The notes beneath the pieces were generated by a model. That model was not told the DNA's origin. It worked only from the letters and a program-made list of their open reading frames with translations, and searched no databases. The translations under genes were made by a program, and so were the position numbers. From an uncultured Methanosarcinales archaeon (GTDB taxonomy: Archaea > Nanobdellota > Nanobdellia > Woesearchaeales > JAGWAF01), in contig CAZGZA010000002.1 of assembly GCA_964529655.1 (NCBI GenBank), positions 10,705 through 52,936 of the forward strand: a stretch of DNA of 42,232 nt. Direction: 5' to 3'. The first letter of the stretch is position 1. Every line of letters begins with the position of its first letter. Shown here one piece after another: positions 11,498 through 32,156 of the stretch.

Positions 11498-11779
11498 CTG
11501 CCTCCCTACTGTAAAATCCGAGATTTTACAGTCCCTCAAATTTGTTCCAAATTTGAGTTGTCTTGGCTTTGCCAAGATTAAATTTTCTCCCCCTCGCTTG
11601 CGCAGGGGGAGAAAATACCTCAAAATCAGAGATTTTGCGGTACTTCAAATTTAGCCAGAACCCTTTCTTGATTTTGAGGTACTGCAAATTTAGCGAAAAG
11701 CTAAATTTGAAGTATAACCCAACTTTGTTCTGAACAAAGTTGAGCAGGGAGGCAGCAGATGAATAATAACAGCAGCAAA
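11498..11779 (-). repeat. 282-bp multi-hairpin element, copy 1 (perfect inverted copy of 18152-18433)
   Basis: Its reverse complement matches 18152-18433 at both ends on direct comparison. The two track ORFs crossing the copies share an identical 85-residue stretch. Confidence 0.9.
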
Positions 11780-13271: not shown

Positions 13272-13925
13272 ATGAGAGGGAGCAGTGCTAAAAGTTTGTA
13301 CAAGTTTATTCTAAAGGGTTTTATCGGAAGGAAAAATACAAAAGAATTCTATAACAGGGTTGCTGGCATCTATGAGTCGGCTATGAGCAGCCAACAAAAG
13401 CATGCTACAGAAATTATTGACCGACTTCCGAGAGGAGATATCTGCCTTGATTTAGGCTGCGGTACCGGCCTTTCAACCCTGGAATTAATGACAAAAGCTG
13501 ATTTTACTGTTGGTATTGATTTTTCCAGAAGCATGCTCAATGAGGCAAAAAAGAAGGGATTGGAAAGGCTTATCAACGGAAATATTTTGGAGCTTCCTTT
13601 CAGAAGCAATACAATAGACTGCACCACTGCCATAGGTGTAGTTCGGCATTTGCCTTATGGTTCAGAACAAACCTTCTTTAATGAGATTTATAGAGTTTTA
13701 AAAAAGAATGGTGTATTTATGACACCGGCAGTAAAATACACCTTCTGCAACCGATTGGTTTTAGGGTTGTACGATAAATTCATGAAACTACTAGGCTATG
13801 ATGAACAACTGGCAAGATTTAGTGTAGAAAATTTTAAGATTTTGGGAGAAAATGCTGGTTTTGCCGTTCAAGCTTATCCTTTCAGGGGATTAAGAGACGG
13901 ATTTCTAGTTTATTTCATTAAATAA
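13272..13925 (+). CDS. Class I SAM-dependent methyltransferase
   Basis: Motif I is ICLDLGCGTG. The acidic post-I residue and the LKKNGVF motif are present. Confidence 0.8.
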   Translation: MRGSSAKSLYKFILKGFIGRKNTKEFYNRVAGIYESAMSSQQKHATEIIDRLPRGDICLDLGCGTGLSTLELMTKADFTVGIDFSRSMLNEAKKKGLERLINGNILELPFRSNTIDCTTAIGVVRHLPYGSEQTFFNEIYRVLKKNGVFMTPAVKYTFCNRLVLGLYDKFMKLLGYDEQLARFSVENFKILGENAGFAVQAYPFRGLRDGFLVYFIK

Positions 13926-14718: not shown

Positions 14719-14793
14719 AGCGAGGTAGGGCAGACAGGAGTGCCCGGGGGGCTCATAACCCCCAGGTCGGTGGTTCAAATCCACCCCTCGCTA
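14719..14793 (+). tRNA. Initiator tRNA-Met (CAT)
   Basis: Hand-folded cloverleaf: acceptor AGCGAGG/CCTCGCT with A1:U72, anticodon arm GGGGG-CTCATAA-CCCCC (a G:C run typical of initiators), T arm GGTGG-TTCAAAT-CCACC. Confidence 0.9.
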
Positions 14794-14933
14794 TTTTTAT
14801 GTTTGTAGTTTGTGGGACTTCATGAAGTGAATGTCCCATTCTTTTTGATCAAACTTTTCGTTAGTTCATGAGCGCGCTCATGAACTAAGCCACGCATGGC
14901 CGTAAAAGTTTGGTGAATATCCACCTCTCGTTA
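14794..14933 (+). repeat. tRNA-iMet trailer cassette ending in a degenerate copy of the tRNA 3' end
   Basis: CCACCTCTCGTTA (14921-14933) matches the tRNA 3' end CCACCCCTCGCTA (14781-14793) at 11/13. It is preceded by AAAAGTTTGGTGAATAT. It contains the module 14814-14860, shared with the tRNA-Pro trailer, and a 28-nt perfect palindrome at 14861-14888. Confidence 0.75.
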
Positions 14934-18151: not shown

Positions 18152-18433
18152 TTTGCTGCTGTTATTATTCATCTGCTGCCTCCCTGCTCAACTTTGTTCA
18201 GAACAAAGTTGGGTTATACTTCAAATTTAGCTTTTCGCTAAATTTGCAGTACCTCAAAATCAAGAAAGGGTTCTGGCTAAATTTGAAGTACCGCAAAATC
18301 TCTGATTTTGAGGTATTTTCTCCCCCTGCGCAAGCGAGGGGGAGAAAATTTAATCTTGGCAAAGCCAAGACAACTCAAATTTGGAACAAATTTGAGGGAC
18401 TGTAAAATCTCGGATTTTACAGTAGGGAGGCAG
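18152..18433 (+). repeat. 282-bp multi-hairpin element, copy 2
   Basis: Perfect inverted copy of 11498-11779. The terminal pairing is GCTGCCTCCCT / AGGGAGGCAGC, with about seven internal stem-loops. Confidence 0.9.
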
Positions 18434-18561: not shown

Positions 18562-19326
18562 ATGGACAAATTTAAGGTTGCAGCTGCGCAAATAAACCTC
18601 AATCAAACATTTGCGTTGGTGCTGAAGGATATGCTGAACTATATTGACCGCGCCAAGGCAAAGGGGGTTGATATCATCTGCTTTCCAGAATCCTCACTTT
18701 TAGGAGGTGACACAAAGAACAGATGGGCGCTCGGAAAGCTAAGGCAGAAATGTAAAGAGAAAAAGATATGGGTCATTGTTGCCGGACGCGTTCGGGAAAA
18801 GAAGCATGTTTATAACACTGCTTTTTTAATAAATAATCAGGGAAGAATTCACGGAAAACACAAGAAGGTCCACCTTTCTGAATGCCTGACACCCTCACTA
18901 AGAGCAGGTTCGGCATTTAAAGTCTATGACACGCCTTTCTGCAAAATAGGGCTGGCAATCTGCTGGGATGTTGCATTTCCTAATGCAGTTCAGAGCATGG
19001 TTAAGAAAGGAGCAAAGTTAATATTCTGTCCAATGTATTGGTGCTTTGAGGAATGGGTGCACAGGAAAGAGCCTAAAAAGTTCGAGAAAAAGCTTCTCAG
19101 GGCGCTGGTCCTTACAAGGGCGTTTGAAAATCTTGCTTATACTATTGTCTGCAATGCTTATGACCAGAAAAGGCCTGACCTGACTTCATACTCTGCAATA
19201 GCAGAGCCGCACAAGATAATAAGCGAAATTTTCGAAAAAGAGGGTATGATTACGGCTGAGGTTGACCTTAATTATCTTAAGAAAGTAAGAAAGAAGTATG
19301 CAGAAGATTATAACAAGGTTTTTTAA
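18562..19326 (+). CDS. Carbon-nitrogen hydrolase (nitrilase superfamily)
   Basis: The E-K-C triad context is CFPES, HGKHKKVHL and GLAICWD. Confidence 0.85.
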   Translation: MDKFKVAAAQINLNQTFALVLKDMLNYIDRAKAKGVDIICFPESSLLGGDTKNRWALGKLRQKCKEKKIWVIVAGRVREKKHVYNTAFLINNQGRIHGKHKKVHLSECLTPSLRAGSAFKVYDTPFCKIGLAICWDVAFPNAVQSMVKKGAKLIFCPMYWCFEEWVHRKEPKKFEKKLLRALVLTRAFENLAYTIVCNAYDQKRPDLTSYSAIAEPHKIISEIFEKEGMITAEVDLNYLKKVRKKYAEDYNKVF

Positions 19327-20210
19327 CCTAGCTTCCTGCAAATCCCGTATAAGTAACTAACCAGCAGCCTTGCCAGCCTTGGGGCGTCATGATTGATAAA
19401 AAAGAGGTCTGGACAGCTGTTTGCCTCAATAATATACCACCTGTTCTGGGCGTAGATAAGGTCTAGCCCGCAAACCTCCAGTCCGCAAACCCTTGAAGTC
19501 TGTTCACACAACGCTTTTAGTCTCTTGCCGATTCTTGCCAGCATAAAATGTTCTTTATGGCTGCTGCCGGTTTGTTTCCAGCTTCTCCCGCCAAGTTTGC
19601 CAACAGCCTGTTTTACCTTATAATTAATCAACGTAACTCTATAACTTCTGTGATCACTCGGAATATATTCCTGAGCAAGGACAGGGGAAACCGGATTTCT
19701 CCTTAAAATTTTAGACAATTTTTTGAAAAAGTCTTTTGGCGTCGCGGCCCTCTCAACGCACACTCCGTTATCAGAAAAAACTGCTTTAATAACTAATGGC
19801 TGCTTCTTAAGAAGGTTCCTGATAAAAGGATTGTTTGATTTTAAATCACGCGGGATAAAATAGGTTCTCGGAGTGGGAATTCCATTCTCAATGCACTTAA
19901 GATAGAACATCCATTTATCCTCCTGATAATAAAAGGAATGCGTCGGAGAGACAACCCTCTTGCCAAGCTCTTCAAGGGTTTTGGAAAGCTCAACAGACTC
20001 CTGTAATTCAGGGCCGGCGGCGGCATAATTAAGAATAACCTTGCAGGATTTTACCTTTTTTTTAAAGGATATTGGGTCAAGCTGCTCCTCTACTGGCAGG
20101 AGAACTACATCCAGCCTTCTGCCAAGCGTGGAGATAAGAAGTTTGTCTATGTTATCAACTGACTCTTTGTAATAGATATAGCCGATAGAATATCTCTTTT
20201 GTTTCATCAA
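19323..20210 (-). CDS. ATP-grasp family ligase (RimK-like)
   Basis: The size, the central lysine-containing region LVIKAV and the C-terminal LDLIY..WYIIEANSCPDL are typical of ATP-grasp folds. Confidence 0.55.
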   Translation of the reverse strand: MMKQKRYSIGYIYYKESVDNIDKLLISTLGRRLDVVLLPVEEQLDPISFKKKVKSCKVILNYAAAGPELQESVELSKTLEELGKRVVSPTHSFYYQEDKWMFYLKCIENGIPTPRTYFIPRDLKSNNPFIRNLLKKQPLVIKAVFSDNGVCVERAATPKDFFKKLSKILRRNPVSPVLAQEYIPSDHRSYRVTLINYKVKQAVGKLGGRSWKQTGSSHKEHFMLARIGKRLKALCEQTSRVCGLEVCGLDLIYAQNRWYIIEANSCPDLFFINHDAPRLARLLVSYLYGICRKLG

Positions 20211-20245
20211 AGATTAATAAGGCAAAAAGGGTATTTATATTTTGG

Positions 20246-20278
20246 GATTTTAGTCCAAAAAAATGCGCTGGCCGGGAT
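20246..20278 (-). repeat. Duplicate of the tRNA-Gly(TCC) 3' end plus its trailer
   Basis: GATTTTAGTCCAAAAAAATGCGCTGGCCGGGAT (20246-20278) matches 20333-20364 with a 1-nt indel. A CCAGATTTTT..AAAAATCTGG hairpin lies between the two copies. Confidence 0.85.
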
Positions 20279-20349
20279 ACCCACCAGATTTTTAAAAAAA
20301 TCTGGTAAAAACATTGGACATAAAATCTTTGAGATTTTAGTCCAAAAAA

Positions 20350-20420
20350 TGCGCTGGCCGGGATTCGAACCCGGATAATCAGCTTGGAAGGCTGAAGTCA
20401 TGCCATTAGACCACCAGCGC
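20350..20420 (-). tRNA. tRNA-Gly (TCC)
   Basis: Hand fold: GCGCTGG..CCAGCGC acceptor, anticodon arm TCAGC-CTTCCAA-GCTGA, T arm CCGGG-TTCGAAT-CCCGG. Confidence 0.9.
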
Positions 20421-20606: not shown

Positions 20607-20680
20607 GGGGCTGTGGTCTAGCTTGGTATGATACACGCATGGGGTGCGTGTGATCGGGAGTTCAAATCTCCCCAGCCTCA
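20607..20680 (+). tRNA. tRNA-Pro (GGG)
   Basis: Acceptor GGGGCTG/CAGCCTC, anticodon arm ACGCA-TGGGGTG-TGCGT, T arm GGGAG-TTCAAAT-CTCCC. Confidence 0.85.
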
Positions 20681-20929
20681 TTTGGAATTAAAGCTGTAGC
20701 GCAGGTTTAATTCCAGCTTTTTACCAGATTTTTACCGAAAAATCTGGTGGTAATCTCCCCAGCCCCAGTTATTTGTTTGTAGTGGGTAATTCTTGGGACT
20801 TCACGAAGTGAATGTCCCATTCTTTTTGATCAAACTTTTCGCCAAAACACTCAAAAATCCATTAAGATTTTTGGTGTCCTAAAAATTCCCGGAATTTTTA
20901 TGAGTTTGGTGAATATCTCCCCAGCCTCA
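20681..20929 (+). repeat. Two tandem tRNA-Pro trailer cassettes, each ending in a copy of the tRNA 3' end
   Basis: ATCTCCCCAGCCCCA (20753-20767, 1 mismatch) and ATCTCCCCAGCCTCA (20915-20929, exact) both match the tRNA at 20666-20680. Confidence 0.85.
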
Positions 20930-31295: not shown

Positions 31296-31439
31296 TGGGC
31301 CCATCCAGATACCTACCAGATTTTTTAGAAAATGCACAAAAATCTAAAATATTTTTGGCATCCTGGAAATCCGCAGATTTCCATGAATCTGGTAAAAATA
31401 TGCGACATAAAATCCTTCTGGGATTTTAGTCGCAAAAAC
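31296..31439 (-). repeat. tRNA-Val trailer cassette ending in a copy of the tRNA 3' end
   Basis: TGGGCCCATCCAGAT (31296-31310) matches TGGGCCCAACCGGAT (31440-31454) at 13/15. The hairpin GACATAAAATCC..GGATTTTAGTC is at 31404-31431. Confidence 0.75.
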
Positions 31440-31511
31440 TGGGCCCAACCGGATTTGAACCGGTGACCTTCGCCTTGTAAGGGCGACGTTCTGCCGCTGA
31501 ACTATGAGCCC
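31440..31511 (-). tRNA. tRNA-Val (TAC)
   Basis: Sense GGGCTCA..TGGGCCC acceptor, anticodon arm TCGCC-CTTACAA-GGCGA, T arm ACCGG-TTCAAAT-CCGGT. Confidence 0.9.
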
Positions 31512-31546: not shown

Positions 31547-31704
31547 TCTGGGCCCACGGGGATTTTCACAAGATTTTTACCAAAGCACAAAAATCCCAGA
31601 GGATTTTTGGCTCCCAAAAAACTTTTGGTTTTTTGTGGAAATCTTGTAAAAAGTGGGCGACATAAAATCCCTTCAGGATTTTAGTCCCTCTAAACTTTGA
31701 AATC
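31547..31704 (-). repeat. tRNA-Ile trailer cassette ending in a copy of the tRNA 3' end
   Basis: TCTGGGCCCACGGGGATTT at 31547-31565 is identical (19/19) to 31703-31721. The hairpin is at 31659-31686. Confidence 0.85.
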
Positions 31705-31824
31705 TGGGCCCACGGGGATTTGAACCCCAGACCTTCGGCTTTCCTAGCGCCGAAAGCGGCCGTATAAGACCGACGCTCTAACTGCCCGAAAGTTTTAGCT
31801 TCCTCCAGGCTGAGCTATGGGCCC
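31705..31824 (-). tRNA. tRNA-Ile (TAT) with two introns (D-loop and canonical 37/38)
   Basis: Removing 31782-31804 (23 nt) and 31741-31762 (22 nt) gives a 75-nt cloverleaf, GGGCCCATAGCTCAGCCTGGTTAGAGCGTCGGTCTTATAAGCCGAAGGTCTGGGGTTCAAATCCCCGTGGGCCCA. The anticodon loop is CTTATAA. Confidence 0.7.
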
Positions 31825-31868: not shown

Positions 31869-31977
31869 TGCAACAGCCGGGATTTTCACCAAACTTTTTT
31901 TGACAAAAGGTTTGATCAAAAGCAGCGACATAAAATCCCTACAGGATTTTAGTCGCAAACACGACCAACACATTCTA
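31869..31977 (-). repeat. tRNA-Gly(GCC) trailer cassette ending in a copy of the tRNA 3' end
   Basis: TGCAACAGCCGGGATTT (31869-31885) matches TGCGACAGCCGGGATTT (31978-31994) at 16/17. The hairpin is at 31927-31954. Confidence 0.8.
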
Positions 31978-32048
31978 TGCGACAGCCGGGATTTGAACCC
32001 GGGTTCCCACCGTGGCAGGGTGGAGTCCTACCACTAGACTACTGTCGC
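31978..32048 (-). tRNA. tRNA-Gly (GCC)
   Basis: Sense GCGACAG..CTGTCGC acceptor, anticodon arm CCACC-CTGCCAC-GGTGG, T arm CCGGG-TTCAAAT-CCCGG. Confidence 0.9.
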
Positions 32049-32053
32049 ATATA

Positions 32054-32156
32054 TGCCCCTGACGGGACTTTCAGATTTCAGTCAAACTGAAAACTTTTGA
32101 ACCCATGTCACTGCCTCGAAAGGGCAGTATGATTGACCGGACTACACCACAGGGGC
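32054..32156 (-). tRNA. tRNA-Glu (TTC) with an intron in the T-loop
   Basis: Sense GCCCCTG..CAGGGGC acceptor, anticodon arm CTGCC-CTTTCGA-GGCAG. The T stem ATGGG/CCCGT is interrupted by ~26-28 extra nt (about 32070-32097) inside the TTCAAA..GT loop. Confidence 0.75.

Follow-up and report, generated by a model that had tools for sequence, protein, structure and literature searches.

A predicted T-loop intron in an archaeal tRNA-Glu(UUC) gene and probably related cassettes behind neighboring tRNA genes

The tRNA-Glu(UUC) gene on a 42,232-nucleotide (nt) stretch of contig CAZGZA010000002.1 from an uncultured archaeon (the whole stretch is called the window below) is interrupted in its T loop by an insertion that is very probably a genuine spliced intron of the bulge-helix-bulge (BHB) type. 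The cassettes found behind the six other tRNA genes of the window end in putative introns of the same design, each followed by a second copy of the tRNA 3′ end. A BHB intron in a working tRNA-Glu gene, together with related cassettes that would be by-passed, explains the locus best, with a probability of ∼0.75 in our estimate.

The tRNA-Glu(UUC) gene and its T-loop insertion

The tRNA-Glu(UUC) gene occupies positions 32054–32156 of the minus strand and comprises 103 nt including the insertion. Read along the minus strand, it runs GCCCCTG TG GTGT..TCAT A CTGCC CTTTCGA GGCAG TGAC ATGGG TTCAAA, then 28 nt, then T CCCGT CAGGGGC A. The sequence bears out a preliminary description of the locus, which had claimed an interruption of the T loop by a hairpin-containing insertion beside an intact T stem (ATGGG/CCCGT). 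The 5′ exon (tRNA positions 1–59; 32096–32156), as delimited by our BHB scanner, ends in ATGGG TTCA AA, and the 3′ exon (positions 60–73; 32054–32067) is present as a single copy. The insertion between them, AGTTTTCAGTTTGACTGAAATCTGAAAG (32068–32095), is composed of an A, the hairpin GTTTTCAG TTTGA CTGAAATC, the tetranucleotide TGAA, and a terminal AG. In the preliminary description, 26–28 nt were placed between TTCAAA and GT. The insertion now measures exactly 28 nt between positions 59 and 60, and the G is intronic and no part of the loop; the mature T loop is the standard 7-nt TTCAAAT. The rest of the gene conforms to a normal tRNA-Glu(UUC).

The unspliced gene escapes ARAGORN, and Rfam recognizes its 5′ part only, with 23.5 bits against a cut-off of 29. 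Upon removal of the 28 nt, a canonical tRNA is restored, which ARAGORN calls as tRNA-Glu(ttc) with a length of 75 nt. We compared the spliced form with an intronless orthologue (positions 19082–19156) from the closest genome found, GCA_053531995.1 (L001). The two are identical at 69 of 75 positions (92%), the stem differences all keep pairs, and pair 26:44 has changed on both sides (A/U to C/G).

In the BHB rule that we applied, which follows the accepted archaeal geometry, the 5′ bulge consists of the two final exon nucleotides and intron nucleotide 1, the central 4-bp helix pairs exon positions −5 to −2 with intron positions −6 to −3, and the 3′ bulge consists of the two final intron nucleotides and exon nucleotide 1, with an exonic outer helix and an intronic inner helix. 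The T arm of tRNA-Glu allows exactly one solution, a perfect motif with both flanking helices (hBHBh′) at 59/60. Its outer helix is the 5-bp T stem. T-loop nucleotides 54–57 (UUCA; 32098–32101) form the exon strand of the central helix and intronic UGAA (−6 to −3; 32070–32073) the other, with four Watson-Crick pairs (U56-A87, U57-A86, C58-G85, and A59-U84 in gene numbering). The helix is flanked by two 3-nt bulges, A58 A59|A and A G|U60 (the latter at 32069–32067), and the inner helix features a G:C pair, a U·U mismatch, and six pairs closed by UUUGA (7 of 8 pairs formed). When the 28 nt are shuffled, this fit is matched in only 0.06% of cases. In the RNAfold ensemble of the precursor, the acceptor stem is preserved, and pair probabilities are 0.89 for the T stem and 0.91–0.98 for the inner hairpin. 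The full BHB fold lies 3.2 kcal/mol above the local minimum; such a cost over the optimum is usual for BHB folds, since the enzyme stabilizes the bulges.

The unique BHB fit, the ARAGORN call of the spliced form, and the paired orthologue together indicate that, as far as can be told from sequence, this is a functional tRNA gene with a BHB intron at 59/60. The intron adds one more example to the non-canonical BHB introns already known, which were reportedly described for archaeal tRNAs by Marck and Grosjean in 2003 and by Sugahara in 2008. The earlier view that T-loop introns are rare in Archaea was overstated: 59/60 appears among the non-canonical intron positions on record (PMC4090602), with support from a dedicated tool (PMC8450103), and DPANN archaea (the superphylum to which Woesearchaeota belong) have much-disrupted tRNA genes, with L3-loop endonucleases in several lineages (PMC5829648).

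Cassettes behind the other tRNA genes

ARAGORN and Rfam jointly find six tRNAs in the window; the seventh is tRNA-Glu, the sole tRNA-Glu of the window. As noted in the preliminary description, all six carry a cassette at their 3′ end, and only tRNA-Glu lacks one. There are seven cassettes, as tRNA-Pro is followed by two. They measure 72–148 nt, are non-coding, and gave only tRNA hits and chance-level matches when searched against Rfam families. All follow one plan: the tRNA 3′ end, a short spacer, a first hairpin (hairpin 1), a run of T4–T5 (T5 in six of the seven), a module, and a second copy of tRNA positions 60–73. A T5–T6 run often lies directly behind the tRNA.

The module assumes the same layout in all seven cassettes. 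It consists of one A, a hairpin closed from position 2 to position −7 (6–10 pairs), a 4-nt element, and NA, followed by T60 of the copy. The 4-nt element is TGAA in four cassettes and otherwise TGGG, TGGT, or TAGG. Three modules measure 29–34 nt, the size of the true introns. Across the seven cassette ends, 0–0.12% of shuffles reach the BHB fit. Each cassette thus appears to end in a 59/60 intron that is complete and in register. All cassette/copy junctions lie exactly at 59/60, the insertion point in tRNA-Glu, a coincidence already pointed out in the preliminary description and accounted for by introns of equal design within the cassettes. When the 5′ exon is joined to the second copy, six of the seven joined sequences are still identified as tRNAs.

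The second copies carry 0–2 mismatches, and five of the six substitutions keep pairing (among the variants are C66U/C71U in Met, C70U in Gly(GCC), and U71C in Pro). With the distal copy, all four central pairs form in five of the seven cassettes, whereas the junctions of Val and of the first Pro cassette are degenerate (three of four pairs), that of Val with an additional A·A mismatch in the T stem. The duplication spans 14 nt in four cases and 19–33 nt in three, and the repeat runs 5–19 nt past the tRNA end at Gly(UCC), Ile, and the tRNA-Pro of a second relative genome (GCA_053532575.1, L135). At Gly(UCC), the repeat reaches into a second, broken hairpin 1, and the repeat unit is therefore 33 nt and not 14 nt. 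On the minus strand at 20230–20263, after the second Gly(UCC) copy, T7 and GGACTAAAATC (the start of hairpin 1) are repeated before the sequence becomes degenerate.

Four of the genes lie on the minus strand. tRNA-Gly(GCC) (31978–32048) is followed by a cassette (31883–31977) with a spacer, hairpin 1 (31956–31925), a TTTT run, and a module (31916–31883; A TCAAAC..GTTTGG TGAA AA), and its second copy (31869–31882) differs by one C>T that still pairs as G-U. tRNA-Ile(UAU) (31705–31824) contains a D-loop insertion and a canonical 37/38 intron; its orthologue (L001:19249–19346) lacks the D-loop insertion. Its cassette (31549–31704) comprises hairpin 1 (31688–31655), a module ending in TGAA AA (31647–31563), and the copy (31562–31549). 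The D-loop insertion measures 19–23 nt and allows several BHB-like solutions; the anticodon UAU is uncommon for tRNA-Ile in Archaea. The Val(UAC) locus (31296–31511) consists of the tRNA (31511–31440), hairpin 1 (31433–31402), a module ending in TAGG TA (31393–31310), and a degenerate copy (31309–31296). The Gly(UCC) locus (20264–20420) contains the tRNA (20420–20350), hairpin 1 (20343–20316), a 29-nt module ending in TGGG TA (20306–20278), and the copy (20277–20264).

The other two lie on the plus strand. The Met locus (14719–14933) comprises the tRNA (14719–14793), hairpin 1 (14814–14837), a module ending in TGAA TA (14848–14919), and the copy (14920–14933). In the Pro(GGG) locus (20607–20929), the tRNA (20607–20680) is followed by cassette 1 (module 20723–20753, copy 20754–20767) and cassette 2 (hairpin 1 20795–20818, module 20829–20915, copy 20916–20929). 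The second relative genome has a single cassette here (L135:5945–6030), the orthologue of cassette 2.

Hairpin 1 and its relation to the Glu intron

In hairpin 1, a base of 4–5 bp is conserved ((G)NGAC/GUCN(C)), a single U is bulged, and the apex is variable and co-varying. Besides the minus-strand sites of the window (31925–31956, 31655–31688, 31402–31433, and 20316–20343), the hairpin is found at L001:19389–19418, at L006:101–132, and on L035 and L089, and is thus conserved over distant Woesearchaeota contigs, in either orientation to the nearby tRNA. L006 is the only genome match to a strict hairpin 1 pattern. A loose pattern returned 120 loci from metagenomes, nearly all of them chance matches, the real ones being the metagenome contigs L035 and L089. 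Hairpin 1 matches no Rfam family. We also considered a C/D-box or K-turn RNA and rejected it, as no matching boxes were seen by eye. The architecture of hairpin 1 recalls single-strand DNA hairpin sites, such as repetitive extragenic palindromes (REP), the ends of IS200/605 elements, and integron attC sites, a likeness that may serve as a lead only.

On L006, hairpin 1 does not follow a tRNA. The last ∼63 nt of a protein gene (..IGKDHPLKHRDAIEIITKK*) are duplicated at 36–98 and 156–219, with both copies in frame and identical at 56 of 63 positions, and the two gene ends flank hairpin 1 (duplication ∼60 nt). Since the duplication occurs here at a protein gene, the habit may be a property of the hairpin 1 element and not of tRNAs.

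Local alignment of the Glu intron with whole cassettes gives matches in hairpin 1, the best with Gly(UCC) (16 of 19 identities; p ∼0.0015). The remainder of the intron matches the opposite arm of hairpin 1, with the order swapped. When the intron is rotated (TTGACTGAAATCTGAAAG + AGTTTTCAGT), it matches GGACTAAAATCTCAAAGATTTTATGTCC in 21 of 26 columns, a score reached by 0 of 1500 shuffles and 0 of 1500 random hairpins of equal composition. All seven α-type hairpins, from the window and three further contigs, align best at this same rotation. In the permuted alignment, the apical loop of hairpin 1 (many YGAAG) falls where the two ends of the Glu intron are joined, and the inner loop of the intron falls at the ends of hairpin 1. 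We lean toward genuine homology behind this permuted match, and not more firmly than that because part of it follows from hairpin complementarity. If real, the permuted homology would imply a circular intermediate. The rotation relation is confined to the Glu intron; the Val and Ala introns of L001 and the Gly intron of L135 do not show it.

The similarity that the preliminary description expected between intron and cassettes therefore exists for hairpin 1, in circularly permuted form, and not for the modules. The motif on which it had relied, an intron start AAAGTTTT resembling the cassette end AAAAGTTTGG, is at chance level: AAAGTTT occurs 30 times in the window, with ∼21 expected. We rejected AAAGTTT as evidence of homology also because the comparison sets the intron 5′ end against the 3′ arm of a cassette, positions that are not equivalent.

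T-loop introns at 59/60 in relatives

Introns at 59/60 recur in relatives, in Val, Ala, Gly(UCC), Cys, and Arg. Generic BHB and T-loop scanners at lax settings give very many hits and were used only together with tRNA context, by which the true T-loop intron cases were chosen. In L001, tRNA-Val possesses a 28-nt intron with a central helix UUCG:CGAA that covaries with the Glu helix. The tRNA-Ala of the same genome, located in the 16S–23S spacer (L001:21829–21950), has a 29-nt T-loop intron at 59/60 in addition to a D-loop insertion. In L135, tRNA-Gly(UCC) has a 27-nt intron at this position. The T-loop introns are longer in the tRNA-Cys of L035 (90 nt) and the tRNA-Arg of L089 (94 nt). Both contain the hairpin 1 cassette unit, inverted, and must be spliced, since neither gene has a 3′ exon copy upstream.

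Although they reside in different tRNAs, the Val intron of L001 and the Gly(UCC) intron of L135 match in 24 of 28 columns, a score reached by 0 of 5000 shuffles. Similar introns thus occur in tRNAs of different identity, as in the transposed intron families of Fujishima 2010. The Glu intron has only one weak match among the introns, to that of Ala in L001, with which it shares the 5′ arm TTTTCAG (p ∼0.035). The Glu and Met orthologues in L001/L130 are without T-loop intron, indicating that gain and loss of these introns are recent.

Cassettes in a second genome

The orthologous tRNA-Pro of L135 is followed by a spacer, hairpin 1, T7, a 30-nt module ending in TGAA AA, and a second copy with 7 nt of flank. 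Compared with the distal Pro cassette of the window, hairpin 1 shows a compensatory change from C-G to T-A and the module hairpin one from A-T to G-C. The tRNA-Pro 3′ part of L135 departs from that of the window at four positions, and the second copy in L135 shares all four; among them are the partner nucleotides of stem pairs 52:62 and 5:68, both of which have changed in a compensatory way. As the copies follow their own tRNA, they are recent, homogenized, or selected rather than ancient fossils that drift neutrally.

In the window, tRNA-Pro has an additional, proximal cassette, whose T run and module are near-identical to those of the neighboring Gly(UCC) cassette. This resemblance suggests that whole cassettes may move between tRNAs, each arriving with a copy of the local 3′ exon. 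The cassette of Met and cassette 2 of Pro likewise share the spacer, hairpin 1, and the module stem arms. In the preliminary description, a T-loop insertion stays as an intron or acquires a duplicated 3′ exon; the Pro locus suggests instead that the insertion arrives together with the exon copy.

Two short contigs from one sample (SRR22387874) belong to the closest relative by PurA (84%) and RimK (87%). One ends exactly at the 3′ end of tRNA-Met (L133:2005–2078), and the other starts exactly at a Pro-like 3′ exon copy (L134:1–20). Such contig breaks are as expected were the repeats present there, and the repeats appear to break assemblies at tRNA ends. The Pro-like copy of L134 adjoins RimK, where the window has the Gly(UCC) copy. 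This suggests that the divergent Gly/Pro pair has been inverted between its own inverted cassettes.

Locus and other repeats

The window is chromosomal DNA with a GC content of 40.6%. It includes the beginning of an archaeal 16S rRNA gene, together with genes for AlaRS, SMC, Cdc48, PurA, FtsZ, RNase HII, and other housekeeping functions. The best relatives of Cdc48 (73–81% identity) are found in genomes labeled Candidatus Woesearchaeota or Nanoarchaeota, which places the organism within DPANN. Synteny walking from Cdc48 and RimK homologues led mostly to contigs without the tRNAs; L001/L130, L135, and the contig ends L133 and L134 were informative.

Two further repeats were observed. A 30-nt repeat (GATTTTGCGGTACTTCAAATTTAGC..) with spacings of 39 and 109 nt, unrelated to the tRNA cassettes, occurs in the window at 11522–11699 and 18232–18300, in three copies in one intergenic region and two inverted copies in another. 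In L001, a GC-rich repeat of ∼110 nt (..GGCTGGCTGCA.CCTGATTG.CTTGCAAGGCAGATTG.CGCTCGCTGGCCAGCAGG..) flanks tRNA genes (18950–19020, 19450–19550, and 13600–13720); it was not seen in the window.

Discussion

In the Glu precursor, the T stem would serve as the outer helix, and T-loop nucleotides U54–A57 would pair with UGAA of the intron. A splicing endonuclease is expected to cut both bulges and the RtcB ligase to join the exons to a 75-nt tRNA with the T loop UUCAAAU. The exon half of the motif is a near-universal T-loop sequence, and an insert ending in a hairpin, UGAA, and two further nucleotides could be spliced from almost any tRNA. With the T loop supplying the exon half, the design would be portable, which would explain such introns in different tRNAs of the lineage. 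Excised archaeal BHB introns become circular, and the Glu intron would probably also be released as a circle. PMC9014305 and PMC4731332 bear on the same subject.

At the six other tRNAs, an intact 3′ end lies upstream of what may be an orphaned intron and a spare 3′ exon. Oligo-T terminates archaeal transcription, and hairpin 1 with its T run may act as a terminator. Most transcripts would then end before the module, and the orphan intron and spare exon would be by-passed. tRNA-Gly(GCC) starts at 32048, 5 nt beyond the Glu discriminator base, and the two genes are presumably co-transcribed. The preliminary description had taken this abutment, which the sequence confirms, as the reason why Glu has no cassette. 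The reason is plausible: with T4–T5 in every cassette, its T run would stop transcription before the co-transcribed Gly, and Glu would keep the intron form. The orientation of the unit may decide whether it is tolerated as an intron, as it is inverted inside the long introns of L035 and L089.

The preliminary description had also proposed a common origin of intron and cassettes. Apart from the motif that it cited, this finds support: the shared design and register, the introns of relatives, and the permuted match to hairpin 1 make a common origin likely. We infer a mobile origin for both, possibly via a circular intermediate. More tentatively, and with the odds somewhat against it, T-loop introns and trailer cassettes might be two outcomes of one mobile system with a circular intermediate. 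A small hairpin element, represented by the permuted pair of Glu intron and hairpin 1, would enter tRNA genes at 59/60. Inserted alone, it would have to be spliced and would be an intron. If the insertion brought or created a second copy of 60–73, the upstream gene would be complete, and the element would become a trailer with a terminator-like hairpin and an orphan intron. Candidate routes to the 3′ exon duplication are insertion at a staggered cut, recombination of an exon-carrying circle, and an RNA-mediated copy.

Several observations count against an intron in a working gene with related, by-passed cassettes. Splicing of the Glu insertion is a prediction, and the central 4-bp helix has a probability of 0.05–0.08 in the unassisted fold, as is usual for BHB motifs. 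The T-loop intron scanner is unspecific by itself (37 hits in real DNA and 25 in shuffled DNA). Pfam scans of 34 of the window's 48 open reading frames of at least 100 amino acids revealed no splicing endonuclease; RtcB was not found in these scans either and is encoded on the contig of the closest relative. The architecture with a duplicated 3′ exon was found only in the window and one relative and nowhere else among the 54 ARAGORN-called tRNAs of the loci examined. Half of the permuted similarity is automatic from hairpin complementarity, and the independent part amounts to 19 nt with 16 identities, the p of ∼0.0015 applying to each of ten comparisons. The Glu intron has no linear similarity to the cassette modules, its linear hits all lying in hairpin 1, and 28 comparisons of modules with hairpins gave no sign that the modules are permuted copies of hairpin 1 (all p ≥0.46). 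The modules are linked to the Glu intron by structure and position only.

The missing ARAGORN call and the Rfam score under threshold would also be expected of a pseudogene or of an unusual tRNA that retains the 28 nt. This is hardly credible in view of the perfect BHB motif, exons 92% identical to the orthologue with all stem pairs maintained, no second tRNA-Glu in the window, and a TATA-like box 5′ of the gene (read by eye from the sequence). Sister tRNAs of relatives, moreover, depend on introns of equal kind. The cassettes could instead be footprints of DNA-level mobile elements, such as integrase attachment (att) sites or casposase-type duplications, next to an unrelated, ordinary Glu intron; complementarity to the T loop would then serve target choice and not splicing. 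Direct repeats of the tRNA 3′ part, most commonly 14 nt, do flank each cassette, as after an insertion, whole cassettes seem to have moved (Pro 1/Gly(UCC) and Met/Pro 2), and on L006 hairpin 1 lies between two protein-gene 3′ ends identical at 56 of 63 positions. The casposase of A. boonei needs T-psi-C-loop-coding DNA and leaves a 15-bp duplication at the tRNA-Pro 3′ end (PMC5137440), and tRNA genes have been suggested to become disrupted when a mobile element integrates (PMC3293823). The A. boonei duplication, however, overlaps the tRNA by 5 bp only and does not cover 60–73, whereas the length in our cassettes varies from 14 to 33 nt and reaches ∼60 nt on L006. Neither the cassettes nor the 42-kb window revealed an integrase, Cas1, transposase, reverse transcriptase, or other recombinase (Pfam; 34 of 48 open reading frames of at least 100 amino acids, with housekeeping or no match), and no terminal inverted repeats were noticed when cassette ends were compared by eye. 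A target guide would, moreover, need no complete intron in exact splicing register, and the L035/L089 unit resides inside introns that must be spliced. We therefore consider an origin of the cassettes from such elements improbable.

The downstream copies might also be live alternative 3′ exons, reached by read-through, with the first 3′ end and the cassette spliced out as one long T-loop intron; the excised piece with hairpin 1 may then leave as a circular RNA. The BHB geometry with the distal copy, complete in five of seven cassettes, agrees with such use, as do the compensatory changes in both hairpins and the co-variation of the distal copy and its tRNA across the two genomes, window and L135 (52:62 and 5:68, fully compensatory). 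Recent insertion or gene conversion explains this co-variation equally well, however, and the preserved pairing of five of six distal-copy substitutions is not significant given transition bias (∼0.1). A T4–T7 run stands between hairpin 1 and module in every cassette, often after a T5–T6 run right behind the tRNA, the proximal 3′ end pairs first during RNA synthesis, and the Val and Pro-1 junctions are degenerate (with three of four central pairs and the A·A of the Val T stem). Live use of the copies is thus unlikely. Less probable still, also in comparison with mobile DNA elements, is local tandem duplication or slippage at the T arm of intron-containing genes with later loss of the first intron and no mobile or RNA intermediate. 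It would account for repeats that continue 5–19 nt past the tRNA end at Gly(UCC), Ile, and L135 Pro, and for the Gly(UCC) repeat that enters a second, broken hairpin 1, as a duplicated block would. It would require two precise events at each of seven sites, and it leaves unexplained the near-identical cassettes at different tRNAs, the new cassette at an already intronless Pro gene, and the permutation between Glu intron and hairpin 1. A spliced Glu intron and related, by-passed cassettes remain the explanation that we favor.

The Glu intron resembles the non-canonical BHB introns in its position, hBHBh′ geometry, expected removal by endonuclease and RtcB, and occurrence in a lineage with multi-intron genes (Ile and Ala here). 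In contrast to known 59/60 introns, its host is a Woesearchaeota-like DPANN archaeon and not a crenarchaeon, the introns form a local group for which the T loop itself is the exon half, and the design also occurs as an orphan behind intact neighboring tRNAs. The similarity of introns across tRNA species is shared with the transposed introns of Thermoproteales (Fujishima 2010), for which earlier work gave no mechanism or flanking duplications, whereas the inserts described here are accompanied by a terminator-like hairpin, by a second copy of the 3′ exon, and by a permuted pair hinting at a circle. As in the Caldiarchaeum model (Sugahara 2012, PMC3293823), a partial tRNA copy lies beside an intron-bearing tRNA, with insertion as the source. 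There, a 1.8-kb recombinase-encoding element is accompanied by a 5′ fragment; here, cassettes of 72–148 nt without protein are accompanied by 3′ fragments at six of seven tRNAs.

Integrative elements and casposons (PMC5137440) also target the T arm, produce a direct duplication of ∼14–15 nt at the tRNA 3′ end, and leave the tRNA intact. Our cassettes differ in that no Cas1 or integrase was found, in their tiny size, in a duplication that starts at T-loop position 60, and in an end that forms a splicing motif. With permuted tRNAs (PMC3218864) and permuted signal recognition particle RNA (PMC4731332), the locus shares reordering through BHB motifs and ligation and the signature of circular permutation. 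Here the permutation links an intron to the trailer hairpin of other genes and not two halves of one functional RNA. The gene order is collinear. No description of the intron-cassette architecture was found in the literature searched.

This tRNA-Glu escapes the standard tRNA finders; such misses are one reason why DPANN genomes appear short of tRNAs (PMC5829648). How introns spread between archaeal tRNA genes has been an open question since transposition was inferred in 2010. The window and two related genomes provide snapshots of one insertion point as an intron, as a long intron, and in a by-passed form with a duplicated 3′ exon. The locus may thus show how archaeal tRNA introns move, persist, and get by-passed. 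Should a single mobile system indeed give rise to both T-loop introns and cassettes, it would provide a first concrete view of the gain, movement, and by-passing of protein-spliced tRNA introns in Archaea.

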